NCBI GenBank assembly: GCA_934130595.1
Contig: CAKOYF010000008.1
Span: 2,229-66,228, forward strand
Length of the DNA stretch: 64,000 nucleotides
Reading direction: 5' to 3'
Origin: an uncultured Clostridia bacterium
Lineage (GTDB): Bacteria; Bacillota; Clostridia; TANB77; CAG-465
Shown here: positions 1,269 to 49,320 of the stretch, one piece after another
How positions within the stretch are numbered: position 1 is the stretch's first letter
Layout: each line of letters starts with the position of its first letter
Translations under genes and position numbers: made by a program
Notes under the pieces: generated by a model
The model's input: only the letters and a program-made list of their open reading frames with translations
What the model was told of the DNA's origin: nothing
Database searches by the model: none

Positions 1269-3035
1269 ATGAAAAGAGAAGAAATAGACAATAAATACAA
1301 GTGGGATTTAAGTACAATTTACTCAAGTAATGAGGAATATGAAAAGGACTTTAACCAAGTAAAAGAAAACATTGGAAAATTCAAAAACTACAAGGAAGAT
1401 TTCTTAAATACTCCAGAAAGATTTTTAGAATTTATGGAGCTATACCAAAATACTAATAGAAAGCTTGAAAAACTTTGTATGTATTCACATTTAGCAATAG
1501 ATGTAGAACCAAAAAATGAATATATACAAATGCTTGAAGCAAATAACAGTGGACTATGTGATATGTATGTTAATGAAACTGTATTTGTAGAGTTAGAAAT
1601 TGGAAAGAATGAAGAAAAGATTAGAAAAATACTTGAAGATAAAAGATGTAGTAAATATGAAGTTATGATGAATCAAATACTAAGATATGTCCCACATAGA
1701 CTATCAGAAGAGGAAGAAGCAATTATTGGAATGGCTGGTAGTGCTATGAATTCATATAAAACTTATTCTTCAATAAAACTAGAGTATAAACCAGTAATAG
1801 TAGATGGAAAAGAATGTTTCTTAAATGATGAAACACAAAGAGAGTTCTTAAAAAATCCCAATGAAGATGTAAGAAAACAAGCTTATGAAAATATACATAA
1901 CGAGTATAAGAAGTTTTCTAATATTTTTGCTAATACATTAGAAGGAAAAATAAAGGAGGATGTTTTTTATTCAAAAGTAAGAAAATTTAAATCTCCTCTA
2001 GAAGCATCTGTATTTAATGATGAGGTAACACCAGATCTTTTTTATAAAATACTAGATGCAGCAAATGAAAAATATCATGGCTACTATATTGATTATTTAG
2101 AAGCATCAAAGAAGATTTTGAAAAAGGATAAATTGAATCCTTATGATTTGAGATTACCACTTGTTGAAAGCTCAAACAAAAAATATACTTTAGATGATGC
2201 TTTTAATCTAATATATGAAGCAACAGAAAATCTAGGAACAGAGTATAGAGAAGTGTTAGATAGAGCTAGAGATGAAAAATGGATAGATTATTTACCACAT
2301 TTAGGAAAGGCACAAGGAGCATATTCTTCAGGATGTTATGATACTAATCCATTTATATTAACAAGTTTTATATCAGATTTAGAATCAGTATTTACTTTAA
2401 TACATGAATTAGGTCATTCTGTTCATACATATTTTTCTACACATTACCAAGACTATATCTATAGTGATTATAGAATATTTGTTGCAGAAGTAGCATCAAC
2501 AGTAAATGAAAACTTATTATTAAACTTATTAATAAAAAAGGCAACAACAAAAGAAGAAAAAGCATATTTATTGTATAAAAAACTAGATGATTTTGTTGGT
2601 ACTTGTTATAGGCAACCATTTTTTGCAAATTTTGAAAATATAATACATGAAAAAGTGGTAAACAATGAAGGATTGTCTGCTAAAACATTAACAGATATTT
2701 ATGACGAGTTGACACAAAAATATTATTCAGACAAAGTAGAGAAGAATGATTTAGAAAAATATAAATGCTTTGCAATACCTCATTTTTACTATAATTACTA
2801 TGTATATAAATATACTATAGGAAATTGTGTAGCATCAGTAATTGCAAAGAAAATATCACAAGGAGATAAGGAGCAAATAAACAAGTATTTAACTTTCTTA
2901 AAATCAGGTTCATCAAAATCACCAGTTGAACTTTTAACACTTGCAGGAGTAAATCCATTAGAAGATAATTTATATAAAGAGGCTTTTGAAGGATTTAAAG
3001 AAGACCTAGAAGAACTTAAAAAAATAATGTTATAG
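1269..3035 (+). CDS. pepF: oligoendopeptidase F (M3B metallopeptidase)
   Basis: 588 aa; HELGHSVH zinc motif at the expected position; N-terminal KWDLS..Y pattern typical of PepF; AGGAGG RBS. Confidence 0.9.
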   Translation: MKREEIDNKYKWDLSTIYSSNEEYEKDFNQVKENIGKFKNYKEDFLNTPERFLEFMELYQNTNRKLEKLCMYSHLAIDVEPKNEYIQMLEANNSGLCDMYVNETVFVELEIGKNEEKIRKILEDKRCSKYEVMMNQILRYVPHRLSEEEEAIIGMAGSAMNSYKTYSSIKLEYKPVIVDGKECFLNDETQREFLKNPNEDVRKQAYENIHNEYKKFSNIFANTLEGKIKEDVFYSKVRKFKSPLEASVFNDEVTPDLFYKILDAANEKYHGYYIDYLEASKKILKKDKLNPYDLRLPLVESSNKKYTLDDAFNLIYEATENLGTEYREVLDRARDEKWIDYLPHLGKAQGAYSSGCYDTNPFILTSFISDLESVFTLIHELGHSVHTYFSTHYQDYIYSDYRIFVAEVASTVNENLLLNLLIKKATTKEEKAYLLYKKLDDFVGTCYRQPFFANFENIIHEKVVNNEGLSAKTLTDIYDELTQKYYSDKVEKNDLEKYKCFAIPHFYYNYYVYKYTIGNCVASVIAKKISQGDKEQINKYLTFLKSGSSKSPVELLTLAGVNPLEDNLYKEAFEGFKEDLEELKKIML

Positions 3036-3072
3036 CAAAAAAACAACACACTCTTTAGTGTGTTGTTTTCTT
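3036..3072. terminator. bidirectional terminator between convergent genes
   Basis: AAACAACACAC / GTGTGTTGTTT stem flanked by an A-run upstream and a T-run downstream. Confidence 0.75.
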
Positions 3073-3087
3073 GTATAAATTTAATTA

Positions 3088-3765
3088 TTATGAGTTTTCT
3101 TTGTAAATTTTACATGCATTAACAAAAGAATCAATTATTTTACAGCTAGGCTCATCATCTGTTCTTTCTGGATGCCATTGAACGCCAATATTAAAAAGCT
3201 TATCTTTCTTTTCTATTGCTTCAATTACATTATCAGATTTAGCACAAACAGTATAATCTCCAGAGTTGGGTACCATGTATCCATGAAGACTATTTACTTT
3301 AATTGAGTCTTTTTCTATTATGTCATGAAGCTTAGAATCTTTATATACTGTTACATCATGTACATACTCATCATCTGGCTTTTTGTGGCCTTCAACTTTA
3401 ATATTTACATTATCATTGCTATAATTACACATAATCTGCATTCCCATACATATTCCAAGTAGTGGCATATCTAGTTCATTTACTTTTTTGCAAATATATT
3501 TATCATAAAAATATATTCTATCTCCACCAGGCATTAAAATACCATCGCACATTTTTATTTGTGAATCAAGTATTTCTTTATCTGTATCAGTAAGAGTACT
3601 TTCTTTATTATTTATATATACCATATCTTTAGTAGGAAGTATTATAAGAGGAATACCACCTGCACGTAAAATATGTCTTCTTACATTTTCTAAAATACAA
3701 AGTACTTGTCTATTGTTATCTGTAATATATGGTCTTGCAACCACTCCAATTATTGGTCTTTCCAT
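3088..3765 (-). CDS. class I glutamine amidotransferase-like, gamma-glutamyl-GABA hydrolase family (peptidase C26)
   Basis: 225 aa; nucleophile elbow GICMGMQ and distal QWHPE motif. Confidence 0.8.
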   Translation of the reverse strand: MERPIIGVVARPYITDNNRQVLCILENVRRHILRAGGIPLIILPTKDMVYINNKESTLTDTDKEILDSQIKMCDGILMPGGDRIYFYDKYICKKVNELDMPLLGICMGMQIMCNYSNDNVNIKVEGHKKPDDEYVHDVTVYKDSKLHDIIEKDSIKVNSLHGYMVPNSGDYTVCAKSDNVIEAIEKKDKLFNIGVQWHPERTDDEPSCKIIDSFVNACKIYKENS

Positions 3766-30183: not shown

Positions 30184-30259
30184 GGGCGCTTAGCTCAGTT
30201 GGGAGAGCATCTGCCTTACAAGCAGGGGGTCACAGGTTCGAGCCCTGTAGTGCCCACCA
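30184..30259 (+). tRNA. tRNA-Val(UAC)
   Basis: Hand-folded cloverleaf: acceptor GGGCGCT/AGTGCCC, anticodon loop CTTACAA, T-loop GGTTCGAGCC, encoded CCA. Confidence 0.92.
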
Positions 30260-30269
30260 CTTATTTATT

Positions 30270-30346
30270 GGCCTGGTAGTTCAGTTGGTTAGAACGCTAG
30301 CCTGTCACGCTAGAGGTCGTGGGTCCGAGCCCCATCCAGGTCGCCA
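30270..30346 (+). tRNA. tRNA-Asp(GUC)
   Basis: Acceptor GGCCTGG/CCAGGTC, anticodon stem CTAGC/GCTAG with loop CTGTCAC, encoded CCA. Confidence 0.92.
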
Positions 30347-30367
30347 CTTTTTTTTTACCGATTTTTC

Positions 30368-30443
30368 GGTCAGATAGCTCAGTCGGTAGAGCAGGGGACT
30401 GAAAATCCCCGTGTCGGGGGTTCGATTCCCTCTCTGACCACCA
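30368..30443 (+). tRNA. tRNA-Phe(GAA)
   Basis: Acceptor GGTCAGA/TCTGACC, anticodon stem GGGGA/TCCCC with loop CTGAAAA, T-loop GGTTCGATTCC, encoded CCA. Confidence 0.92.
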
Positions 30444-35752: not shown

Positions 35753-35828
35753 GGGCGCTTAGCTCAGTTGGGAGAGCATCTGCCTTACAAGCAGGGGGTC
35801 ACAGGTTCGAGCCCTGTAGTGCCCACCA
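35753..35828 (+). tRNA. tRNA-Val(UAC)
   Basis: Identical to 30184-30259. Confidence 0.92.
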
Positions 35829-35838
35829 CTTATTTATT

Positions 35839-35915
35839 GGCCTGGTAGTTCAGTTGGTTAGAACGCTAGCCTGTCACGCTAGAGGTCGTGGGTCCGAGCC
35901 CCATCCAGGTCGCCA
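35839..35915 (+). tRNA. tRNA-Asp(GUC)
   Basis: Identical to 30270-30346. Confidence 0.92.
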
Positions 35916-35936
35916 CTTTTTTTTTACCGATTTTTC

Positions 35937-36012
35937 GGTCAGATAGCTCAGTCGGTAGAGCAGGGGACTGAAAATCCCCGTGTCGGGGGTTCGATTCCCT
36001 CTCTGACCACCA
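35937..36012 (+). tRNA. tRNA-Phe(GAA)
   Basis: Identical to 30368-30443. Confidence 0.92.
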
Positions 36013-36025
36013 AAATATAACTTAT

Positions 36026-36101
36026 GCGGGAATAGCTCAGTTGATAGAGCGCTGCCTTGCCAAGGCAGAGGTCGCGGGTTTGAGCCCCGTTTCCCGCTCC
36101 A
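36026..36101 (+). tRNA. tRNA-Gly(GCC)
   Basis: Acceptor GCGGGAA/TTCCCGC, anticodon stem CTGCC/GGCAG with loop TTGCCAA, encoded CCA. Confidence 0.9.
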
Positions 36102-36192
36102 TTTTTTATATTTATAAAATGTTATTTATGACATTTTATTTTTTTAGAAAAATTGTGAATAAATTTAACATTTTATAATATAATTTACTAAT

Positions 36193-36266
36193 GGCAACTT
36201 AGCCAAGCGGTAAGGCACGGGTCTGCAACACCCTGATGATCGGTTCGACTCCGATAGTTGCCTCCA
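36193..36266 (+). tRNA. tRNA-Cys(GCA)
   Basis: Acceptor GGCAACT/AGTTGCC, anticodon loop CTGCAAC, T-arm ATCGG-TTCGACT-CCGAT, encoded CCA. Confidence 0.88.
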
Positions 36267-36451: not shown

Positions 36452-39400
36452 ATGGAAAATAATACAAGAAAAAAGAGCATTAGTATAATAGTAATAGGAA
36501 TTATACTAACAGCGATAATCTTTAATAAAAATAACATAATATATAATGTTCAGAATATAAAAAATAATAATGCAATGGCAACTAATTATGATAATGTAAC
36601 AGATTTTCAAAATGCTAGATGGAAAGAAATACAAAATAATATTTTTGGAGAAAATGTAGCTGGTTCTGTTACAGATACAGCCTTAGCAACTGCAAATGTT
36701 GTTCAAGGAAACCAGTATTTTAATTGGGCAAGTTTAGACAGTAAAACTATAATGCCTTGGGATGGTAGTAAGAACAAAAGTGATGGTACTGAATATACTG
36801 ATGCTGATTTTTATAATAACGGAGCGTTAGAGGAAGAAACTGTAACCTATACTACTACAATTACAGAAGGAGTAAAAAGCACTAGAACAGTAAAATATCA
36901 AGTATACAATGTATATAATGCTAACCAATTAAGATACGTTTTAGAAAGTAAGGCATCAACGCAAGAAAATAAAAAGATATATATAAGAAATGATATAGAT
37001 TTAGCCGGATATAATAATGTTTTATGGAGCTCTATTTCTGTAAATAATGGTGAAATGTATATTGAAGGAAATGGACATACAATATACAATTTAAATTCTA
37101 ATACTAGTGGTATATTTTCAACAATAAATAGCTATATGACAATATTAAATTTAAATATAGAAAATATAAAAATAGTGTCTGGACGTGATAGTGTATCTCC
37201 TTTAGGACAACCTAATGCAAAAGGAATAAGATTTGAAAATGTACATGTAAAAAGTGGATTTATTCAATCATCTGCAAGTAATGCGGCTGGATTCATGTCA
37301 AGACCACACTCAGTAAATGCTTTTGTAAAAGATTGCTCATCTTCAAATTTGTATTTGTATGGAGCAGGTGAGCATACATCTGGATTTAGTGGATGTATAT
37401 GTCCTTCTCAAGCAGGAAATGGTGGCGGATATGGCGTAAAATATACAGTAGATTATCCCGAGCAACCAGAAGCACTGTTTGGAAATAACTCTACATCTTT
37501 AAATACAGCAAGTTCTAAGTATCCGTTTTATATATTAGATTGCTATTCTATAGATTGTGAGATATTTGCAACTAAAGGTCATGCTGGTGGACTTATTTCT
37601 TGTATAGATAGTGGTATTATATGTAAAAATTCTTTCTCTAACAATTCAATTTATGGTGAAGGACAAGTTGGTGTAATAATGGGCTGTCAAGTCGCAGCTT
37701 CAAAAACACCATTATATGATGATTCAAATAAACAGACAGTTAACTGCTACTTTGAAAACTGTTATTCATCAGGAGTTGTTGAAGGAAAAAATGCAATTGG
37801 CGGATTTATGGGTGCAGATAATGACACCGCAGCAGCTACTATATATAAAAATTGTTATTCAACATCTATGGTTGGAATGGATTATTCTGGAAACAAGGTT
37901 GGAGGATTTATTGGAGAAACAACTAATACTGCAAGTACAACAATAGAAGGATATGGCACAGTAAAAGGTGTTCTTATGATTAACTGCTACGCAGCAGGAG
38001 AAGTAGGAAATATAAGTACTTCTACAGATTTAAGTGTTGCTAAAAGTAAAAGAATCGGTGGATTTATGGGTTCATATTCAAGTGTAGATTACTTAAATAT
38101 TTTTAATTGCTTTTATGATAAACAAACTACAGCTATGAGAAAAGTTGCAGTTGGACTTGAGGGTAATAATGGTACATGTCAATTAAAAGGATTAACAGGT
38201 GTATATACTAAATCATCTGAGCTAAAGAATGTTCAAGGATTAACAGATGTAGATATGCAAGATGGAAGTGCTTGGCTATATAGAACTGGGTATTATCCAC
38301 AACTAAGAATTTTTACGGATTTAGCATTAGATAATTTTAGCAATAATGAATTAGTAGAGAGTTATTCTACAGCATCAGCAGCAACTGTATTCCTAAATCA
38401 TTGGGATACACTAATGAATGAAAATGGAAATATAGAAAATAATAAAGAGTCAGCAGATATATATGACACTATTAGAGACATAACTTCATCATTTGAGTTT
38501 ACAAGTAATGGAAATTCAAACTCAGCTGGATATGATTTAACATGGGAAGTAGATAGTGAAACAAATAAAATAAAAGGATACGTTGAAAAACTAAATATAA
38601 CTCAAGAAGATGGTTCAGTAAAAGACGTGTCAGTGCTATCTATTAAAAATCCTGTAAAGAACAAAACAGATAGTGCAAACTTTGGATTAGATGTATCAGA
38701 CATATATAAGTGTTATGATTTCGCACCAGGAAAATCTTGGGTAAAGATAATCGTTGAAAATACATTAGGAAATAATGTAATAGGAACAAGAAAACTAAGA
38801 CTTTTACCTACAGCATATATAGACGCAGGTAATTATACAGAAATTTCACTTGTAACAGATAACGACAATAGTGAAGATGTTACACAAAATAAAGTAAAGA
38901 TAGATGGAATAGATGAAATACAAAATAGCTATTTCCATGCTCAAGACACAATGTATGTAATAACTGATTCAGATAAACTTGCAGATAATAAAGTTGTTTA
39001 TCCAGGACAAGTAGTATCTCAAAATAAATCTGAAACAAATCTATTTGCTTTGTGGAATAGATATCCTTCAGATTTAAATTCAACACAAGCAACAAGTAAA
39101 AAATTTGATAAAATGTATGCTCAAGCTTTACTAGGTAATTCTAAAGACAGCGGGTTAGCTAAAGTTGAAGTATATAGCTTAGGAGTTGCATATCGTTCTA
39201 TTCAAACAGATGATGGAGAAGTAACAGTTCCTGTAATAAATTATGATGAAGAAAAAAGAATAACATCAGATGCATTAAATGATCAAAAATGGAGAGGTGA
39301 AAAACTCTTTACGACAGAAGATGCTGGATGGTATGAATTAAAATATTACTGGAGATTAAAAGATGGTAGATATCTTACAGATAGCAAAATTGTTGTAATA

Positions 39401-42400
39401 AAAGGCAATGAAATATCAGCAACATTAAATAATAATATAATTAAAGGTGAACAAGACTATAATGATGAAAATTTAAAAATTACCCCAGATATAAAACAAA
39501 ATACAGAAAATTTTGGAGACTTAAAAATAGATTATGCAAGACAAGAAGAAGAAAAAAGAAATGTAAAAACATCAATTAATGAAAATGGTACTGTTGAAAA
39601 AAGTATAAAAATAAGAGAATTTGTAGATGATGAATTAATAGCTGGATGGAAAAATGATGATAGGTATACACTAAAAGAATTAAAGGTGGAAATTAGTAGA
39701 GATGGAGCAGCTTGGGTAAGCCTTCCAATAAATTTAGAGGATTCTAGTGAAGCACAATATACTTACGCAAATCAAAACTGGCAAGTAAAACAATATACAG
39801 ATACTAAACAATATTATATAGATCCAACAGGTGACCCTATAGAAATAACACTAAATGCTAAACTAATAAAAGATCCAAGTACAGAAAATGATTATGTAAA
39901 ATTTAAATTTACATCAGATAGTGAAGAGACAACAGATCTTGTAACAAATAGTAACATTAGAGTAACTGCTACTTTTGTTCCTGTAGATAAAATAAAAGTA
40001 GATAAAAAATGGGAAGATGATGCAAATAAAGAAGGCTTAAGACCAGAAAACATAACTTTAGTTTTAAATGGTAGTGATGGAAGTAGTTATACTCAGCAGA
40101 TAAGCGGAGATAGTAATACAGATATAAATTGGAGTTATACTTTTGAAGTACCTAAGTATAGTGAACAAGAACAGGAAATATCATATACTTTAGATGAAAA
40201 AAGCACTTCAGATATATATGAAAAACAAATAGATGAATCTAGCAATACAATAGTAAACAAGATAATAAAATATAACATTAAAACCAAAGTTGATGGTATT
40301 GGAGGAAGTATTTCTGGACAAAATCAAGACTCATATGAGGAAGTAGTAAAAGGACTTGATTCTACCAAAGAAATTGTAATAACTCCGGATGATGGGTATG
40401 AAATAGAAAGTATAAAAATAAATGGAGTAGAACAAGAACTACCAAATAAAAGAGATCAAGAATATACATTGCCAATACTAAAGAATGTAACAGAAGATAA
40501 AGAAATAATTGTAAAATTTAGAGAAAATAGAGTAAATATTAATGTAACTAAAAAATGGGTAGATAATGAAAATGAAACATTAAAGAGGCCAACAAATATA
40601 AAATTAGTAGTAAAAAATAAAGAAGAAGTAGTAGCTCAAACTGTAATATCAACAGAAAATGATACACAAAGCTATACATTCCAAAACTTACCTAAATATG
40701 ATAACGAATCAAAAGAAATTATATATACAATAGATGAAGAAGAAGTAAATAGTGGCGATTTAAAATTTTATACTAAGCAAATAAATGGAAGTACAATAAC
40801 AAATACATTTACAGTTCCAGATGAAAAGGTAAATGTAGATTTCAAAAAAGTATGGCAAGATAATGAAAATGAGAACAACAAACGACCAACAAGCATAATA
40901 GCACAAGTAAAAAAAGGAACTGAAGTAATAAAGAGTGTTACTTTAACTGGAATTACTAGTACATGGAATTATACATTTCAAAACTTACCTAAATATGATA
41001 GCTTAGGCAATGAGATAACATATGAAATAGATGAGCAAGAAGTAAATGAAGGCGAGTTAAAATTCTACCAAAAAAATATAGATAATAGTACTAACACAAT
41101 AACTAATATATTTACAGTTCCAGAAGAGTATATAGAAATCATATCTCAAAAAGAATGGAAAAATGAACCAAATACTAATAAAAGACCTCAAAGCGTTGTA
41201 ATACAAGTAAAAAATGGAGGAAGTGTAGTAAAAGAACAAGAAGTAAGTGCAGATACTGATTGGAAGACTACTTTTAATGGGTTACCAAAGTATAACTTAC
41301 AAGGAAATGAAATTACTTATACAATAGATGAAAAAGAAAAGGATACTGATGACCTTAAATTTTATGAAAAGGCTATAAATAATAGTACATATACAATAAC
41401 CAATACATTTAAGGTACCAGATGAAAGAGTTGAATATCAAGTAATAAAAAAATGGGAAGATAATTCAAATATTGCTAAAAAAAGACCACAAAATATAATA
41501 GTAGATCTATATTCTAATGGAAAGGTTATAAGAAATCAACAAATAGCTACATTAGAAGATGAAAATACATATACATTTGAAGATTTACCAAAATATGATG
41601 AAAATGGTGAAAGTATAAAATATACAGTAGATGAAAGAGAAACAAATGAAGGTGAATTGTATTTTTATAATAAGAGTATAAATGGAAATATAATAACAAA
41701 TACATTTACAGTTCCAGATGAAAAAATAAATGTAGAAGTTAAAAAGATTTGGAATGATAATTCTAATGAACATCAAAAAAGACCTGAGTCTTTAAAATTA
41801 GTACTAAAAAGCGGTGAAAAAGTAGTATCACAAAGTACAATACAGACAAATGGAAATCAGCAAGTATATGAATTTAAAGATTTAACTAAATATAATGAAT
41901 TAGGAAATGAGATAAAATATACAGTAGATGAAGAAGAAATAAACGAAAATGACTTAAAATTTTATACTAAAGAGATAGATAATGCTACAAATACAATAAC
42001 AAATACTTTTAAAGTGCCAGAAGATAAGGTAAATGTTGTAGCTAAAAAGGTTTGGCAAGATGATAGTAATGCATCAAAGAAAAGACCAAAAAGCATATAT
42101 TTAGATTTATATGCAGATGGTAAAAAACAAGTAAGTCAACAAATAACAACTTTAGAAGATGAAAATATATATACTTTTGAAAATCTAGCCAAGTATAATG
42201 AAGCTGGAAATGAAATAAATTATAGTATAGATGAATCAGAAATAAATGAAAATGATTTAAAATTTTATACTAAGCAAATAAATGGCAATACAATAACAAA
42301 TACATTTACAGTTCCAGATGAAAAGGTAAGTGTAACAATTGTAAAAAAATGGGTAGATAACTCTAATGAGAATAATAAAAGACCACAAAATTTAAAATTA

Positions 42401-45400
42401 GTCGTAAGAAAATCTGGAGAAGAAGTTGCTAGTCATGTAATTACAACTGAAAATGATGAAGAAAGATATATATTTGAAAATCTTCCTAAGTATAATGAAC
42501 AAGGCAATGAAATAAATTACACAATAGATGAAGAGGAAGTAAATGATGGAGACTTAAACTTTTATACTAAACAAATAAATGGTGAGACAATAACAAATAC
42601 ATTTACAGTTCCCGCAGATAAAGTAACATTAAAGGCATCTAAAACATGGAATGATAATAATGATTTTGCTAAAAAAAGACCAAACAGTGTAATTGTGGTT
42701 GTTTTAAATGGAGAAGAACAAGTACAAGAGAAAACTTTAAATGAATCAAATGATTGGAAATGCTCATTTAAAGATTTACCTAAATATGATAGTAATGGAG
42801 CAGAAATAAAATATACATTAGCTGAAAAAGAATCTACATTAGGAGATTTATACTTTTATGAAACTGAAGTGGATAATACAAATATTAAGTTAAAAAATAC
42901 TTTTAGAGTTCCAGATGAAAAGGTAAGTGTTCCTGTAACAAAAATATGGGAAGACAATTCAAATGTAGCTCAAAAAAGACCGAGTAGCATCATAATAGAC
43001 TTATATGCTGATGGAGTCTATAGCAAGAGTTATACAATATTAGATACATCTAGTGATACTCAAAATTATACTTTTGAAAATTTACCTAAGTATAATGAGT
43101 TAGGAGATGTTATAACTTATACAGTAAATGAAAGAGAAGTAAATAAAGAAGATCTGAAGTTTTATTCTAAAAATGTAAATGGTTATACAATAACAAATAC
43201 ATTTACTGTACCAGATGAAAAAGTAAGTGTTCCTATAACAAAAATATGGGAAGATAATTCAAATGCAGCTCAAAAAAGACCTAACAGTATTCTATTAAAA
43301 TTATATGAAAATGGTAAATTTATTAAAAATTATGTTTTAACTGATACTAAATTATCAGATACACAAAGTTATATTTTTGGAAATCTTGCAAAATACGATA
43401 GCTTAGGAAATGAAATAAGTTATACAGTAGATGAAGAAGAAATAAATGAAGGAGATTTAAAATTCTATTCAAAAGAGGTAGACAACACTACTAATACACT
43501 AACAAATAAATTTGTTGTGCCAGAAGAAAAGACATCATTTACAGTTACTAAAATATGGAATGATGATAACAATAAGGCTCAAAAAAGACCTAATAGTATA
43601 CTATTTGAATTATATGCAAATAATTCATACGTTAAAGAATATTTGTTAACAAATACTAACGTAAATTCTCAAAGTTATACTTTTGAAAATCTTCCCAAAT
43701 ATGATGATTTAGGAAATGTAATATCATATACAATAGATGAAAAAGAAGAAAATGAGGGAGACCTTAAATTTTTTTCTAAAAATATAAATGGAAATGTAAT
43801 AACAAATACATTTAGAGTACCAAGTGAAAAAATAGATATTACAGCTAAAAAGATATGGAGCGATAATAGTAATAAAAATAACAAGCGTCCTACTAGTATA
43901 ACTTTAGATTTATATGCAAATGGTGTATATAGTCAAAGTACAACTATTCAAAATGTAAAAGATACTGATAGTCAAACATATACTTTTAGTGGACTATTAA
44001 AATATGATAGTTTAGGTAATGAAATAAATTATACAATAGATGAATCAGAGACTGCAGTAGGAGATTTGAAGTTCTACACAAAGAGCATAGATAATTCTAA
44101 TAAAACAATAACAAATAGCTTTACAGTTCCAGATGAAAAAGTTAGCTACACAGTAACAAAAATATGGAATGACAATAACAATAAAGCACAAAAGAGACCA
44201 AGTAGTATAGATATAATATTAAAAGCAAATGAAAAAGAGTATAAAAGAGCAACAATTGAAGTTTCTAGTAGTAGTCAGCAAAATTATATATTTGAAAATT
44301 TACCAAAATATAACCAATCAGGAGATGTTATAGTATATTGGGCAGATGAGGCAGAAACTAAAACAAGAGATTTGTATTTTTATACTAAAAACATAGATGG
44401 TAATGTAATAACTAATACATTTAATGTGCCAGACGAGAAGATAGAATGTCAAGTTACTAAAAAATGGGTAGACCAAACACCATTAAGAAGACCAGATCAA
44501 ATTAGATTGGTATTAAAAGATGAGTTGGGTAATAAGGTAGATAAAACACTATTAAATACTCAAAATGACTCTAGTGTTCAAACATATATATTTAAAGAAC
44601 TAGCTAAATATGATGAGTTAGGTAACTTAAAAAAATATACTGTAAGTGAAGAAGAAGTAAATACAAATGATCTTTATTTCTATAATTCAAGTGTAGATGA
44701 AAGTACAAATACCATAACTAATACATTTGTGTTACCAGAAGATAAGATTGATATAAATGTAACAAAGGTATGGGATGATAATGACAATAAAGCAAGAAAA
44801 AGACCATCAAGCATTATAATACAAATTAAAAATGGAGATAAAGTAGTAAAATCTCAAAAAGTTACAGCTTTAATGGAGTGGACTTTTAATTTTACTGATT
44901 TGCCAAAATACGATGAAGTAGGAAATGAAATAGCATATATTATAGATGAAGCAGAAGTAAATGTAGATGATTTAAAATTCTATAAGAAAACTGTAGACTA
45001 TGATACAAACACTATAACAAATACTTTTTCAATACCAGAAGAGCAAACTAGTATCACTATAACTAAAACATGGGAAGATGAAAAAGATAAATATGCTAAA
45101 AGACCAGAAGCAATATTAATAGATGCTAAAAATGGAACTGCTGTTGAAAAGACTTATGAATTGTCTAAAGATAGTACAGATGATGAAATATGGACAGCTC
45201 AAATAGATGGATTATCTAAATATAATGAAAATGGAGATATAATAAGATATACAATAGATGAAAGAGCTAAAAAAGCAGGAAGTTTATTACCATATACAAA
45301 ACAAGTAAAAGGATATAATATAACAAATACTCTTAAGTTTTATAATATAACTACTCAAGTTGATGGGGATGGTGGAAGTATATCAGGACAAGATGAAGAT

Positions 45401-46204
45401 TGCTATGAAAAAGTAGTATATTCTGGAAGTACATCTAAAGATATAATTGTAACGCCAGACAAAGGATATAAAATTTCATCAATTAAAATTAATGGAAAAA
45501 ATATAGAATTTAAAGTAGATGAAAATGGTTCATATAAACTAGAAGAAATAAGTAATGTAACAGAAGATAAAAACATAGTAGTTAGTTTTGAAAAAATAGA
45601 TAGTAAAGTATTAGTAAAACATGTAACTGAAGATGGACAAGAATTAAAACAAACAGAGGTAATAGAGGGAAAATATGGCACAGAGTATAAAACTAGTGCT
45701 TTAGATCTTCCAGATTATGATTTAGTATCCTTACCAGAAAATGCTAGTGGAACTATGAATGAAGAACAAATTATAGTTACTTATGTGTATAAACTAGTAA
45801 AGGGAAAAATAATAGTTACTAAAGTAGATAGTAAAGATGAAAATACATTGTTAAAAGGTGCTATATTTAAAGTAGAAAAGCTAACAGAAGAAGATACAAT
45901 AGATGATCAATTTGAAAAACTAGAAATTGAGACAGGTGAAGATGGAAAAGCCGAATTTTCAGATTTAGCTATTGGAAAATACAGAGTAACTGAAGTAAAA
46001 GCGCCAGATGGCTATGAACTATCAAGAGAATACCTAGATGTTGAAATAACAAAAGAAAATAGAGAACAAGAAATTAAAGCAAGTAATAATTTAAAATTAA
46101 TCTTACCTCAGACTGGAGGAAAAAATAGAGCTATATTAATATCAGCATTAGGAATAACTATTATGGTATTGTCTTTTGCAGTACTTAAAATAAAAAAGAA
46201 GTAA
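36452..46204 (+). CDS. giant LPXTG-anchored surface adhesin (3250 aa)
   Basis: N-terminal signal/TM. The roughly 1150-aa N-terminal region carries GLUG-type motifs (HAGGLIS, NAIGGFMG, NKVGGFIGE, KRIGGFMGS). It has 17 Cna-B-type repeats (KKW.DN.N...KRP...LPKY...G.EI.YT.DE), two roughly 85-aa insert domains (TPD.GY.I.SIKING), a MucBP-like domain, a SpaA-like domain (GKYRVTEVKAPDGYEL), LPQTGG at 46103-46120, a hydrophobic tail, and KIKKK. Confidence 0.93.
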   Translation: MENNTRKKSISIIVIGIILTAIIFNKNNIIYNVQNIKNNNAMATNYDNVTDFQNARWKEIQNNIFGENVAGSVTDTALATANVVQGNQYFNWASLDSKTIMPWDGSKNKSDGTEYTDADFYNNGALEEETVTYTTTITEGVKSTRTVKYQVYNVYNANQLRYVLESKASTQENKKIYIRNDIDLAGYNNVLWSSISVNNGEMYIEGNGHTIYNLNSNTSGIFSTINSYMTILNLNIENIKIVSGRDSVSPLGQPNAKGIRFENVHVKSGFIQSSASNAAGFMSRPHSVNAFVKDCSSSNLYLYGAGEHTSGFSGCICPSQAGNGGGYGVKYTVDYPEQPEALFGNNSTSLNTASSKYPFYILDCYSIDCEIFATKGHAGGLISCIDSGIICKNSFSNNSIYGEGQVGVIMGCQVAASKTPLYDDSNKQTVNCYFENCYSSGVVEGKNAIGGFMGADNDTAAATIYKNCYSTSMVGMDYSGNKVGGFIGETTNTASTTIEGYGTVKGVLMINCYAAGEVGNISTSTDLSVAKSKRIGGFMGSYSSVDYLNIFNCFYDKQTTAMRKVAVGLEGNNGTCQLKGLTGVYTKSSELKNVQGLTDVDMQDGSAWLYRTGYYPQLRIFTDLALDNFSNNELVESYSTASAATVFLNHWDTLMNENGNIENNKESADIYDTIRDITSSFEFTSNGNSNSAGYDLTWEVDSETNKIKGYVEKLNITQEDGSVKDVSVLSIKNPVKNKTDSANFGLDVSDIYKCYDFAPGKSWVKIIVENTLGNNVIGTRKLRLLPTAYIDAGNYTEISLVTDNDNSEDVTQNKVKIDGIDEIQNSYFHAQDTMYVITDSDKLADNKVVYPGQVVSQNKSETNLFALWNRYPSDLNSTQATSKKFDKMYAQALLGNSKDSGLAKVEVYSLGVAYRSIQTDDGEVTVPVINYDEEKRITSDALNDQKWRGEKLFTTEDAGWYELKYYWRLKDGRYLTDSKIVVIKGNEISATLNNNIIKGEQDYNDENLKITPDIKQNTENFGDLKIDYARQEEEKRNVKTSINENGTVEKSIKIREFVDDELIAGWKNDDRYTLKELKVEISRDGAAWVSLPINLEDSSEAQYTYANQNWQVKQYTDTKQYYIDPTGDPIEITLNAKLIKDPSTENDYVKFKFTSDSEETTDLVTNSNIRVTATFVPVDKIKVDKKWEDDANKEGLRPENITLVLNGSDGSSYTQQISGDSNTDINWSYTFEVPKYSEQEQEISYTLDEKSTSDIYEKQIDESSNTIVNKIIKYNIKTKVDGIGGSISGQNQDSYEEVVKGLDSTKEIVITPDDGYEIESIKINGVEQELPNKRDQEYTLPILKNVTEDKEIIVKFRENRVNINVTKKWVDNENETLKRPTNIKLVVKNKEEVVAQTVISTENDTQSYTFQNLPKYDNESKEIIYTIDEEEVNSGDLKFYTKQINGSTITNTFTVPDEKVNVDFKKVWQDNENENNKRPTSIIAQVKKGTEVIKSVTLTGITSTWNYTFQNLPKYDSLGNEITYEIDEQEVNEGELKFYQKNIDNSTNTITNIFTVPEEYIEIISQKEWKNEPNTNKRPQSVVIQVKNGGSVVKEQEVSADTDWKTTFNGLPKYNLQGNEITYTIDEKEKDTDDLKFYEKAINNSTYTITNTFKVPDERVEYQVIKKWEDNSNIAKKRPQNIIVDLYSNGKVIRNQQIATLEDENTYTFEDLPKYDENGESIKYTVDERETNEGELYFYNKSINGNIITNTFTVPDEKINVEVKKIWNDNSNEHQKRPESLKLVLKSGEKVVSQSTIQTNGNQQVYEFKDLTKYNELGNEIKYTVDEEEINENDLKFYTKEIDNATNTITNTFKVPEDKVNVVAKKVWQDDSNASKKRPKSIYLDLYADGKKQVSQQITTLEDENIYTFENLAKYNEAGNEINYSIDESEINENDLKFYTKQINGNTITNTFTVPDEKVSVTIVKKWVDNSNENNKRPQNLKLVVRKSGEEVASHVITTENDEERYIFENLPKYNEQGNEINYTIDEEEVNDGDLNFYTKQINGETITNTFTVPADKVTLKASKTWNDNNDFAKKRPNSVIVVVLNGEEQVQEKTLNESNDWKCSFKDLPKYDSNGAEIKYTLAEKESTLGDLYFYETEVDNTNIKLKNTFRVPDEKVSVPVTKIWEDNSNVAQKRPSSIIIDLYADGVYSKSYTILDTSSDTQNYTFENLPKYNELGDVITYTVNEREVNKEDLKFYSKNVNGYTITNTFTVPDEKVSVPITKIWEDNSNAAQKRPNSILLKLYENGKFIKNYVLTDTKLSDTQSYIFGNLAKYDSLGNEISYTVDEEEINEGDLKFYSKEVDNTTNTLTNKFVVPEEKTSFTVTKIWNDDNNKAQKRPNSILFELYANNSYVKEYLLTNTNVNSQSYTFENLPKYDDLGNVISYTIDEKEENEGDLKFFSKNINGNVITNTFRVPSEKIDITAKKIWSDNSNKNNKRPTSITLDLYANGVYSQSTTIQNVKDTDSQTYTFSGLLKYDSLGNEINYTIDESETAVGDLKFYTKSIDNSNKTITNSFTVPDEKVSYTVTKIWNDNNNKAQKRPSSIDIILKANEKEYKRATIEVSSSSQQNYIFENLPKYNQSGDVIVYWADEAETKTRDLYFYTKNIDGNVITNTFNVPDEKIECQVTKKWVDQTPLRRPDQIRLVLKDELGNKVDKTLLNTQNDSSVQTYIFKELAKYDELGNLKKYTVSEEEVNTNDLYFYNSSVDESTNTITNTFVLPEDKIDINVTKVWDDNDNKARKRPSSIIIQIKNGDKVVKSQKVTALMEWTFNFTDLPKYDEVGNEIAYIIDEAEVNVDDLKFYKKTVDYDTNTITNTFSIPEEQTSITITKTWEDEKDKYAKRPEAILIDAKNGTAVEKTYELSKDSTDDEIWTAQIDGLSKYNENGDIIRYTIDERAKKAGSLLPYTKQVKGYNITNTLKFYNITTQVDGDGGSISGQDEDCYEKVVYSGSTSKDIIVTPDKGYKISSIKINGKNIEFKVDENGSYKLEEISNVTEDKNIVVSFEKIDSKVLVKHVTEDGQELKQTEVIEGKYGTEYKTSALDLPDYDLVSLPENASGTMNEEQIIVTYVYKLVKGKIIVTKVDSKDENTLLKGAIFKVEKLTEEDTIDDQFEKLEIETGEDGKAEFSDLAIGKYRVTEVKAPDGYELSREYLDVEITKENREQEIKASNNLKLILPQTGGKNRAILISALGITIMVLSFAVLKIKKK
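40529..45335 (+). repeat. in-frame tandem array of 16 Cna-B-type repeats (about 285-300 nt period); a 17th copy lies at about 39977-40270
   Basis: Repeats were counted from the recurring K(K/I)W.D..N...KRP motif. Blocks of 60 nt or more are near-identical at DNA level, e.g. around 40760-40830 and 42258-42330. Confidence 0.85.
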
Positions 46205-46228
46205 ATTTTAAAATTTGCTTCTTTTTTT
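46195..46228 (+). terminator. intrinsic terminator
   Basis: AGAAGTAAATTT / AAATTTGCTTCT stem (one G-U pair), then TTTTTTT. Confidence 0.8.
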
Positions 46229-46262
46229 CCAAAAACTTACAGAAAAAATAATGCAAAAACTA

Positions 46263-46291
46263 TTTACTTAAATTTATTTTAATGCTACAAT
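46263..46291 (+). promoter_or_regulatory. promoter of the candidate structured RNA
   Basis: TTTACT, 17-nt spacer, TACAAT, with TG at -15/-14 (TGCTACAAT extended -10). Confidence 0.5.
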
Positions 46292-46297
46292 ATATGT

Positions 46298-46464
46298 AGA
46301 TAGAGAAAACGAATTATATGAAAATCTACAAGCATATGATACGGGAGTCAGGAATTTTACGGTTTGTGTTGAATACTCTATTTTTGAGGATCCTAATGGC
46401 TAGTAACAAGACACCCACCTTTACAAAAGGGTTTTATCATTATATAGTTATCTCTATCTTTTTT
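46298..46464 (+). ncRNA. candidate structured RNA of unknown class (about 165 nt), or a leader of 46503
   Basis: The predicted 5' end AGATAGAGA (46298-46306) pairs perfectly with TCTCTATCT (46451-46459), which is followed by a U-run. Further imperfect pairing links 46308-46321 with 46440-46449. The interior is locally GC-enriched (ACGGGAGTCAGG, GAGGATCC, ACACCCACC) in an AT-rich genome. Confidence 0.4.
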
Positions 46465-46502
46465 ATGTTATAAAAATAAAATTATGTCTACTAGGAGGCT
46501 TT

Positions 46503-46847
46503 ATGATAAAATATATAATGGACTTAAAGAAGTTAGATAACAAGGAAAAAGAATTGGTAGATAGAGCTTTAAGAAAACTAGAAAATCAAATTAATGTTAT
46601 TGAAAGCACTGGAACACCATTCGAAAAGATTTTTAATAATGATAGTATAAAATATGACATACTTGGAAAAAGCTTTTATACATACAAATTTGTGGCTGAA
46701 AATTCATCACAAATACGTATATTATATAGATTTGTTAGAAAAGAAGATAATACATATGATTTAGAATGCCATAAAGTAGAAGTAAAAAGAAGAAGTGGAA
46801 AAGAATATATAAAAAAATTTGAACACTATGTAAAGCAATATGATTGA
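46503..46847 (+). CDS. RelE/ParE-superfamily-like protein (orphan toxin-like)
   Basis: 114 aa; AGGAGG RBS. FYTYKFVAENSSQIRILYRFVRKEDNTYDLECHKVEVKRRSGKEY tracks the E. coli RelE segment CYKIKLRSSGYRLVYQVIDEKVVVFVISVGKRERSEVY (recalled from memory). Confidence 0.4.
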   Translation: MIKYIMDLKKLDNKEKELVDRALRKLENQINVIESTGTPFEKIFNNDSIKYDILGKSFYTYKFVAENSSQIRILYRFVRKEDNTYDLECHKVEVKRRSGKEYIKKFEHYVKQYD

Positions 46848-46915: not shown

Positions 46916-47449
46916 ATGAAAAAAGTATATATTATATTAACTAACAGTGGCAGTCTTCTTTCAAAAGTAATAAAGTTTTATACTAAAAAAGAGTATACAC
47001 ATGTTTCTATATCACTAGATAGAGGATTAAGAAAAATGTATAGTTTTGGAAGACTAAAGGCATACAATCCTTTTATTGGTGGATTTGTTCATGAAAGCAC
47101 AAATCATGGTACTTTTAAAAGATTTAAAAATACAACAACATGTATTTTTTCTATTGATGTAGAAGAAGAGGAATATGAGACAATAAAGCAAACTATAAAA
47201 GAATTTAAAAGGCAAAGAAGAATATATAAATTTAATATAATAGGATTATTTGCTGTAGCAATACATCTAAAGCTTAGATTTAAGAATTCTTTTTATTGTG
47301 CTGAATTTGTAAAAGAGGTGTTGCAAAGGGCAAATGTAGCACCAGATCTACCTAAAATAATAAAACCAGAAGATTTTAGAAAAATGGAAAATATTAGTGT
47401 TATATATCAAGGAATGCTTAAAGATTATAGTATACGTGATAGTGCATAA
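46916..47449 (+). CDS. permuted papain-like (YiiX/YaeF, C92-like) NlpC/P60-superfamily protein
   Basis: 177 aa; His-before-Cys order: YTHVSI near the N-terminus and FYCAEFV about 110 aa later. Confidence 0.5.
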   Translation: MKKVYIILTNSGSLLSKVIKFYTKKEYTHVSISLDRGLRKMYSFGRLKAYNPFIGGFVHESTNHGTFKRFKNTTTCIFSIDVEEEEYETIKQTIKEFKRQRRIYKFNIIGLFAVAIHLKLRFKNSFYCAEFVKEVLQRANVAPDLPKIIKPEDFRKMENISVIYQGMLKDYSIRDSA

Positions 47450-47544: not shown

Positions 47545-49320
47545 ATGGATGATTTTGAAAATAAATATGGAAATTTTAGTTTTGACTCTAGAGGTATTCA
47601 TCGTTCAGCAGATGATGCAAGAGGAAAAATAGATGAATTAATGAATGATGAAGAACTTAAAGAAGCTCTTCGTAAGATGAAATCTAAACCAGAAGAAAAG
47701 AGTTATGTAACACCTGGCGCAACAGCTAAAGAAGTTGCAAGCTCATCAGGTAAAGGATTGGACATAAAATGCTTCATAGATCCAGATGCTGGAGAGAAAT
47801 ATCCAGAGGAACTAAGAAGATTAGATTTAGAATGTATATATATAGGATTACTTTTAAACAATCCGCCTGCAATAAGTATGTATTACTTTGTTTCAAGTCT
47901 TTGTTTATTTGCAGATCCTAGAATGATAAATATATATAAAGGCGTATTATTTACAGAAGGTGAAGCATATGCTCCAGCAATTGCAAAAGAAAACTTTAAC
48001 TTTGCAACAGAATCAGGAGATGTATATACACTAAAAAACGAGTTAAAAAAAGCTACAGCAAATGAAAATTATGATTTTGAAAAAGTTTATACAGAACTAA
48101 AGAAAATATTTATATTAAGAAAGGCATACAATGGTATTCCAATAAAAGAAATAAAGGATAAAGTTGCAGCAATTACCAAATATGAATTATATGATCAAAT
48201 GACAGCAGATGAAGTAGAAGCAGCTATTGAACAAATTACGGCTACAGCTAAGTTTAAAAGTGCTGTTTTAAATGATGGACTAACTAGTTTTATTACTAAA
48301 GGAAACAATTCGCTAACAAATGGATTAGATATCCCATTTAGAATACTTTCTTCTGTTTTTAAAGGCGTAAGACTTGGAGAAACAATGGCTTTTGCAATGC
48401 CTTCTAACTCAGGAAAATCTAGATTTACTACTGTACTTGCAGCATATATAGCTTTTATTCATAAGAAAAAAGTATTAATAATTTCTAATGAGATGTCAGA
48501 AGAAAAAATTAAACTATGTTTAGCAACAACAATACTAAATAATGCTCAAATACAAAATTTACATGGTCAAAAGGTTAGAAAAACAGAAAATGAAATACTA
48601 GAATTTAAATACAGACCAGATGATCCAAATGCAGTAAAGGTAGATGAAGATGGATTTATTCTAAAAGAAGAGGGAGAGACTCATGAGGCTTTTGTAGAAA
48701 GATTAAGAAAAGTATCTAGTGAGTTTAATATGGTAACAAAAGCTACTGATTGGTTAGATAATGAATTAAATAATTCAATTTACTTTATTAATATTACAGA
48801 CCACACAAATGACGAGCTAAAGAAAGTTATAACAAATTATTACTATAGATATAAAATTCAATATATGTTCTATGATACTTTAAAAACTGATACAGCAAAC
48901 ATTGGTAATGGTGAAGAAATAAAGAAAACAGCAACTATATTATCTAATTTAGCTCAAAACTTAGGAATATTTATATGTTCTTCTTTACAACTTACAGAAA
49001 CTGCAACACTTCCAATTAACTTAACAGTTAATGATTTAGCAGTAAGTAGAACTGTAAAAGAAGTTTTAGATACATTAATGTTAATAAAACAAATACATAA
49101 TGAAAATTTAGAAGATTATGAATATTCAGATGAAGAAGTAGATACTAAATATTATGACTTAGAAAGATTTAAAGATCCAAATGTTAGATACTATGCATGT
49201 GTAGTAGATAAAAACAGAGCGGGTTCAAAACCTAAAGTAGTGTTTAGATTAAATCTTGCATATAATGAATGGTTTGAACTCGGATATTTAAGACTAAAAA
49301 CAGGCAAAGAAGGAAAATAA
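47545..49320 (+). CDS. divergent DnaB-family helicase-like protein
   Basis: 591 aa. It has a DnaB N-domain-like segment ([15 protein letters not shown]....[12 protein letters not shown]), a P-loop [35 protein letters not shown], and a terminal DKNRAGSKP (compare KQRNGPTG). The QL.R arginine is replaced (QLTE). Confidence 0.6.

Follow-up and report, generated by a model that had tools for sequence, protein, structure and literature searches.

The 6S-1 RNA (BsrA) of Bacillus subtilis is ~190 nt long and lies next to the gene for YrvM, a ThiF-family protein; in Escherichia coli the 6S gene, ssrS, precedes ygfA. By mimicking an open promoter, 6S RNAs sequester RNA polymerase. Suzuma (2002) places the B. 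subtilis RNA, as BS190, in the aspS-yrvM spacer. The cycle through which 6S RNAs act is established (PMC8876501, PMC4793215, PMC3923129), and RNAs of the Firmicutes 6S-1 type possess, while free, a hairpin within the 3' central-bubble strand (3'-CB hairpin) and, once pRNA has been made, a collapse helix (PMC8876501). A survey of lactic acid bacteria recognized atypical 6S loci through synteny, promoter, terminator and a relaxed search, with a relaxed second search being required for 54 genomes, and found a GG at pRNA positions 4 to 6 to be conserved (PMC8414754).

We analyzed a 64,000-nt stretch of DNA from an uncultured Clostridia bacterium, here called the window, and conclude that positions 46298 to 46460 (+ strand) are very probably the 6S RNA gene (ssrS, Bacillus bsrA/6S-1 type) of an uncultured, ~28% GC lineage of gut Clostridia. 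Searching Rfam at gathering thresholds gave nothing in the RNA region and only tRNAs in the window. A permissive local Rfam search covering 46150 to 46560 returned a single meaningful match, to RF00013 (6S/SsrS), which spans the full RNA (46298 to 46460, model positions 1 to 187) at 28.2 bits and E = 5e-4; the gathering score of the family, 46.4 bits, is a curation cut-off and not a biological feature. The Rfam alignment places GGGAGUC and CACCCACCU of the window on the conserved GGGAGcC and CACCCACCU that flank the central bubble. The 11 further homologous loci with a recorded 6S match likewise match 6S (11/11), and no Rfam family other than 6S gives a full-length alignment to the RNA in 12 of the 12 loci with a recorded match. 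The initial annotation had described a structured RNA of unrecognized class while remarking on its resemblance to 6S RNA; the second thought was right and the first was wrong.

The scores of the homologs against RF00013 run from ~24 to 48 bits (L066, 44.2; L064, 40.4; L015, 37.8; L065, 37.4; L123, 36.5; L040, 32.7; L026, 32.5; L116, 32.4; and L038, 23.6 bits), with one locus, L027, above the gathering score at 48.0 bits, so that members of the family fall on both sides of the curated cut-off. The L027 RNA has the conserved core motifs in common with the window RNA, and an in-house covariance model, R1, matches L027 at 154 bits and the window at 46296 to 46467. Through these common motifs and strong model matches the window RNA is tied to an above-threshold member, and sequence comparison shows it to be homologous to 6S RNA. 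In L027 the RNA lies between a ThiF-family gene upstream (best NCBIfam match TcdA) and sigK downstream, an arrangement that resembles the B. subtilis aspS-yrvM locus and fits orthology to 6S-1, for this single locus. The TcdA-like ThiF gene is found directly upstream in L027 only, and the clade of the window has a different, internally conserved neighborhood. The sporulation sigma factor gene just downstream of the L027 6S gene (2783 to 3484) is SigK-like at 282 bits, so at least this member of the clade carries such a gene.

The RNA is thus a divergent, AT-rich 6S RNA lying below standard annotation thresholds and not a new RNA class; it reveals no new kind of RNA and opens no long-standing question. 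In contrast to 6S-1, the 6S RNAs of this clade are very AT-rich, so that most members fall under the Rfam gathering score, and the window RNA is shorter, at ~163 nt. In being missed by standard covariance-model thresholds they resemble the weakly scoring or atypical 6S RNAs of low-GC Firmicutes such as Weissella (PMC8414754), but unlike the Weissella type they clearly retain the canonical structure, with covariation support. The RF00013 gathering score misses nearly all 6S genes of this clade, and the alignment (A7) and model R1 could be used to annotate 6S in its MAGs, adding 6S annotations for an uncultured, very AT-rich clade of gut Clostridia sampled from human, mouse, rabbit and ruminant sources.

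Relatives were collected with two scans, both on exact motifs of this RNA, so that conservation of those motifs is partly due to ascertainment. A search of 185,579 species genomes with CCCACCTTTACANAAGGGTTTT gave 22 stretches, each from a different assembly and with one match per genome, a count that refers to copies with the motif, since a divergent second copy would be invisible to the search. All 22 are species-level MAGs labeled as uncultured 'Clostridia bacterium' or 'Clostridiaceae bacterium', the named sources among them being the guts of sheep, water deer and rabbit ('Lapin'). Scanning metagenomes for GAAAATCTACA-N(10-13)-GGGARTC, the 5' motif, gave 11 true homologs among the 80 listed of 120 stretches, the remainder being mostly chance matches. 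The protein of 114 aa encoded downstream of the RNA gave a further route: it belongs to a narrow family of 57 clusters, on contigs from gut metagenome assemblies and MAGs, and the RNA is present upstream of those homologs with at least 72% protein identity, where it is 80 to 88% identical to that of the window. Promoter, ends and core of the RNA are kept at fixed spacing in 24 related loci.

The gene has its own sigma-A/sigma-70-type promoter (46263..46291, + strand), like 6S-1, composed of a -35 element TTTACT (46263 to 46268), a 17-nt spacer and an extended -10 element TGCTACAAT (46283 to 46291) with TG at 46283 to 46284 and TACAAT at 46286 to 46291. The extended -10 promoter, initially proposed to start transcription near 46298, was borne out by the sequence and by a promoter scan, which also lists this site with its TG marked. 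The scan found 18 promoter-like sites in the region against 11.6 +/- 3.9 expected, and such sites are frequent in DNA of 28% GC; the stronger point is that TTTAC(T/A)-17-TGnTAnAAT or a near variant stands at a constant distance from the closing stem in 24 of 24 genome-derived homologous loci. At the other end, the first nine nucleotides, AGATAGAGA (46298 to 46306), are perfectly complementary to TCTCTATCT (46451 to 46459) with TTTTTT next, exactly as had been noted, and the U-run (46459-46465, + strand) continues the 3' arm of the closing stem. The transcript probably ends within this U-run, up to ~46465. The 3' arm and the U-run look like an intrinsic terminator, and in most members of the clade, unlike in 6S-1, the closing stem meets the U-run directly and so resembles the RNA's own terminator. 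In one group of loci (L026, L028, L041, L043 and L045) a separate terminator ~15 nt downstream, a GC-rich hairpin with a U-run, takes the place of this U-run. The GC enrichment of the core that had been pointed out is real and modest, 0.32 in the RNA region versus 0.19 to 0.25 in neighboring spacers. Upstream, the gene for a 3250-aa adhesin ends in an intrinsic terminator read from its sequence (46192..46228, + strand), with a hairpin of AAAGAAGTAAA and TTTGCTTCTTT followed by a T-run, which overlaps the adhesin stop codon at 46202 to 46204. Inverted repeats I4 and I11 lie over this area, and the permissive Rfam search gave only generic hairpins there (mir-1252, psbA-3'UTR). As judged from its sequence, this terminator insulates the RNA from upstream transcription. 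The picture of a self-contained unit running from promoter to terminator and closed end to end as a rod is upheld by the conserved promoter and terminator and by covariation in relatives.

The same region contains an ATG-initiated open reading frame of 51 codons (46318 to 46473), and conservation of a 51-aa protein was named at the outset as one of the findings that would undo the RNA interpretation. When the frame was followed through the alignment, it was cut to 12 to 20 codons in 21 of 24 homologs, its start codon was AAG in three and TTG in five, and single-base indels fell inside it. Its substitutions track base-pairing and not codon structure, and the product has no Pfam or PHROG match. 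The ORF is therefore not the conserved element, and the likelihood that the region encodes a protein is close to nil. Together with the promoter and terminator, these comparisons establish the 6S locus as an independent non-coding gene.

As a single sequence the window RNA is unremarkable: its fold energy has z = -1.49 and 18 of 200 shuffled versions reach an equally good fold, so its single-sequence features lie within chance and the case rests on comparison with relatives. We drew a rod of 43 base pairs from the Rfam alignment and the fold, built model R1 from it and aligned all members to R1. Across 33 distinct sequences, 94.4% of the cells of the rod hold standard pairs, against 44 to 49% when the 3' partners are slid by one to three columns; 21 of 43 pairs show compensatory double changes, against 2 to 10 for the slid versions; and the covariation score is 0.226, against 0.026 to 0.057. 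None of 500 shuffles reaches any of the observed measures for these sequences, and a set of 23 sequences gives the same structural picture. Since fitting to a model biases an alignment in its favor, an unfitted MAFFT alignment analyzed with RNAalifold served as a check, and it independently recovers the closing and terminal stems, with double changes in 10 of 29 pairs. The check for covariation in relatives that had been recommended at the start supports the rod on comparative grounds.

Like 6S-1, the rod consists of a closing stem, a large central bubble and a terminal arm. The closing stem (helix 1) is formed by its 5' arm (46298..46310, + strand), with AGAUAGAGA and AAC, and its 3' arm (46447-46459, + strand), with GUU and UCUCUAUCU; the AAC/GTT extension brings the end pairing to a 13-nt arm with 92% complementarity (inverted repeat I5). 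Ten of 12 pairs in this stem show compensatory changes, as in GGUAACAG/CUGUUGCC of the L026 group and GAGUCAGCAG/CUGCUGACUC of L027. Further inward, where imperfect pairing had been anticipated, a P2-like helix (helix 2), the equivalent of P2 in 6S-1 and adjacent to the central bubble, joins 46315..46326 (+ strand; UAUAUGA and AAAUC, part of the predicted pRNA template) with 46430..46444 (+ strand; GGUUUUAUCAUUAUA). It is 92% paired with a compensatory change in four pairs, and these bases are also paired in the alignment to the Rfam 6S model. The terminal arm (46343..46416, + strand; helices 3 to 6) has at its base GGG.GUC (46343-46349) paired with GAC.CCC (46410-46416), with a G-C to A-U swap at 46347/46412, then an internal stem of 46358-46364 with 46398-46405, in which 6 of 7 pairs show compensatory changes, and apical pairs at 46371-72/46391-92 and 46376-78/46386-88. 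The strongest evidence from covariation is that for the closing stem and the internal stem of the terminal arm. The pairs proximal to the bubble and the stem of the 3'-bubble hairpin barely vary and so carry no covariation evidence.

In its unconstrained minimum-energy fold the window RNA has a local 5' hairpin (46313 to 46320 with 46333 to 46340) in place of the P2-like helix. As a functional structure this hairpin was rejected, with 73% of cells pairing and one pair covarying. A separate variation is seen in L025 (143 to 327), which has an insertion of ~18 nt in the apical loop of the terminal arm, seemingly a local duplication of GTTGAATACTCTGTAT; the apex hence tolerates a change of length and the bubble does not.

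The central bubble has a 16-nt 5' strand (46327..46342, + strand; UACAAGCAUAUGAUAC) and a 13-nt 3' strand (46417 to 46429), with GGGA.yC and CCCACCU on its flanks as in 6S-1. The 3' strand and its hairpin (46417..46431, + strand) read CCUUU-ACAA-AAGGG, and the CCTTT/AAGGG hairpin already picked out in the sequence pairs 46418 to 46422 with 46427 to 46431 in the minimum-energy, centroid and RNAalifold consensus folds. Each core motif was checked in the set chosen on the other motif. In 23 distinct sequences selected on the 3' motif only, GAAAAUCUACA (46320 to 46330) is invariant, and GGGArUC is conserved too; the sequences collected through the 5' motif retain CCCACCU...AAGGG..UUUAUCA. In this second set the bases of the hairpin stem are kept bar one, as is the UUUAUCA strand, and the loop varies (ACAA, ACAC, ACAU, AGA, AUAU, AUAUA). 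GGGAG.C and CACCCACCU also agree with the Rfam consensus. A small hairpin of 5 to 6 bp is predicted to be pre-formed in the 3' bubble strand of the free RNA, as in 6S-1, unlike the 9-bp hairpin of E. coli 6S, which forms only after pRNA synthesis (PMC8876501). G46430 and G46431 are common to this 3'-CB hairpin and the P2-like helix, so the two pairings are mutually exclusive there.

A candidate for the central bubble collapse helix of 6S-1, in which the distal part of the 5' bubble strand would pair with the 3' strand of the neighboring helix, is also present: AUGAUA (46336 to 46341) can pair with UAUCAU (46435 to 46440) in 21 of 23 sequences. In the L026 group an A-U to U-A swap in this pairing is mirrored in the competing 5' strand, a three-way co-variation. 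When folding was carried out with the template blocked, the helix formed in L025 and L027 and not in the window or L032. The evidence for refolding into a collapse helix is suggestive.

The overall architecture is that of an open-promoter mimic, as in E. coli 6S (SsrS), and by analogy we infer that the window RNA binds RNA polymerase and directs pRNA synthesis. The large central bubble of the rod would mimic an open promoter and fill the active site of the housekeeping RNA polymerase holoenzyme, and sigma-A-dependent transcription would be damped on nutrient depletion. On outgrowth, polymerase would take the 5' bubble strand as its template; the invariance of GAAAAUCUACA suggests that the pRNA probably starts opposite C46329, and the product would begin 5'-GUAGAUUUUC, being predicted as 5'-GUAGAUUUUCAUAU. 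The growing pRNA would unwind the adjacent helix (46315 to 46326 with 46430 to 46444), and the freed 3' strand could pair again, either as AUGAUA/UAUCAU with the distal bubble or in a stabilized CCUUU/AAGGG hairpin, with release of the polymerase. Such release driven by the pRNA through refolding of the 3' bubble strand is presumed here as for E. coli 6S (PMC8876501). As a compact 6S variant found in nature, in which a refolding switch of the 6S-1 type has a clear candidate, the RNA may interest those who study the 6S mechanism.

A bolder version of this scheme, which we regard as unlikely, is that the RNA is a streamlined 6S in which the closing stem is also the intrinsic terminator and the ends are unprocessed, with UAUAUGA and AUAUGAUA acting as a two-state switch and with a link to the toxin-like and helicase genes nearby. 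If so, the doubling of closing stem and terminator would yield mature ends without processing; the near-repeat UAUAUGA / AUAUGAUA, with both copies complementary to one 3' strand, would be a hard-wired switch for pRNA-driven release; and the frequent association with the HigB-like 114-aa gene and with a conserved DnaB-like helicase could reflect a functional tie of 6S to growth arrest or replication.

A second possibility is that this is a specialized 6S-like paralog, as 6S-2 is in Bacillus, or a re-purposed descendant of 6S, the canonical 6S lying elsewhere. The RF00013 scores that fall mostly under the gathering score would agree with this, as would the predicted pRNA, which, unlike that of 6S-1, has no GG at positions 4 to 6 where the GG noted in PMC8414754 is conserved, and our view covered 64 kb of the genome of origin and, for the other genomes, short loci. 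Against it, a single copy per genome (one copy carrying the motif) was found across 22 species, one ortholog (L027) scores above the gathering threshold, the bubble strands are strongly conserved, as expected of a working 6S, and low-GC Firmicutes often have 6S genes that score below threshold (PMC8414754). Neither the window nor any locus examined contained a second copy of the RNA. We therefore consider the paralog quite improbable, and take the gene as very probably the 6S gene of its lineage.

Given that the RNA lies 43 nt upstream of the 114-aa gene (46503 to 46847, + strand) on the same strand, it had also been suggested to be a cis-acting leader of that gene, and the frequent retention of the pair in relatives and short complementarities between the 3' part of the RNA and the start region of the gene (I6, I13) could be read in this way. 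However, the RNA has a conserved promoter and terminator of its own, ends in a stem and U-run with no supported alternative anti-terminator, and matches no riboswitch family in Rfam, at gathering or permissive thresholds. More directly, L025, L034, L038 and L044 lack the 114-aa gene next to the RNA, the 177-aa gene that otherwise comes next standing directly after the RNA in L025 and L034 and ~1.3 kb downstream in L038 and L044. None of six window neighbor proteins tested, the 114-aa protein included, was found in L026, L027, L028, L041, L043 or L045, and the Pfam-annotated neighbors in L027 and L043 are different genes from those of the window. Conversely, the RNA was not found beside 114-aa homologs at 50 to 63% identity. 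With the gene missing beside the RNA in several loci and distant copies of the gene standing without the RNA, the proposal of a riboswitch or attenuator is refuted for practical purposes and we give it very little probability, leaving the 6S gene as an independent unit.

The complementarity between the RNA and the gene start is an observation of its own. It joins the 3' part of the RNA at 46432 to 46449 (TTTTATCAT, CATTATATAGTT) with 46503 to 46520 (ATGATAAAA, AAATATATAATG), the start-codon region of the 114-aa gene, in two swapped blocks (I13 and I6). It may have arisen by chance in AT-rich DNA, or it could occlude the start codon in read-through transcripts.

The 114-aa protein gave no match in Pfam, PHROG, NCBIfam, PADLOC or PDB sequence searches. 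Its confident AlphaFold model (pLDDT 87) has its best fold match in the HigB2 toxin of the RelE/ParE superfamily, a weak one (E = 0.016, TM ~0.5), so that the 'RelE-like' label first given to it is possible and is not established. No obvious antitoxin partner was identified. Distant homologs occur in mobile-element-like contexts with PcfJ, CHAT, ClpP and transposase.

The neighbors of the RNA (phosphoketolase, MarR, ABC transporters and tRNAs) appear chromosomal, and a BLAST search of the locus against phage and plasmid collections gave no match. An origin from a mobile element by way of paralogous cassettes elsewhere in the window, raised by matching ORF lengths (177 aa and 588/591 aa), was rejected: the proteins are unrelated, and the window holds no second RNA. 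As read from the related sequences, the ancestral order in the clade is the 342-aa gene, the tRNA array, the RNA, an optional 114-aa gene, the 177-aa gene and the gene for a DnaB-like helicase. This synteny from the tRNA array onward differs from that of lactic acid bacteria (rarA/uspA, PMC8414754). Among the neighbors examined by Pfam there was no homolog of 5-formyltetrahydrofolate cyclo-ligase (ygfA).

In the window a gene for a 3250-aa LPXTG-anchored surface protein (36452 to 46204, + strand), with many Cna_B repeats and MucBP and SpaA domains, separates the tRNA array from the 6S gene. In related species that place is taken by a small gene or is empty, so the adhesin seems to be an insertion or expansion particular to this lineage. 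The L003 metagenome contig has the adhesin gene split into pieces of 2661 aa and 565 aa. The tRNA cluster is itself duplicated (30184 to 30440 and 35753 to 36263), with three tRNAs scoring identically in both copies, and the two clusters flank a segment of ~5 kb that includes the 342-aa gene; L038 has a similar arrangement of two arrays around a homologous 342-aa gene.

Downstream, the 177-aa protein (46916 to 47449, + strand) has a faint YiiX/permuted-papain-like match, and the 591-aa protein (47545 to 49320, + strand) has a weak match to DnaB_C (Pfam E = 3e-7; PHROG DnaB-like helicase, 2e-25) and may be either the replicative helicase of the clade or a domesticated phage-type helicase. Across species the helicase is 69 to 92% and the 177-aa protein 54 to 76% identical, and both are syntenic with the 6S gene. 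In the independent metagenome assemblies behind L001 to L006, the region lies on contigs of 68,961, 68,990, 69,087 and 69,278 bp and on one of 104 kb; the near-equal lengths, together with the chromosomal-looking gene content, suggest a recurrent assembly break at a repeat and not a circular element.
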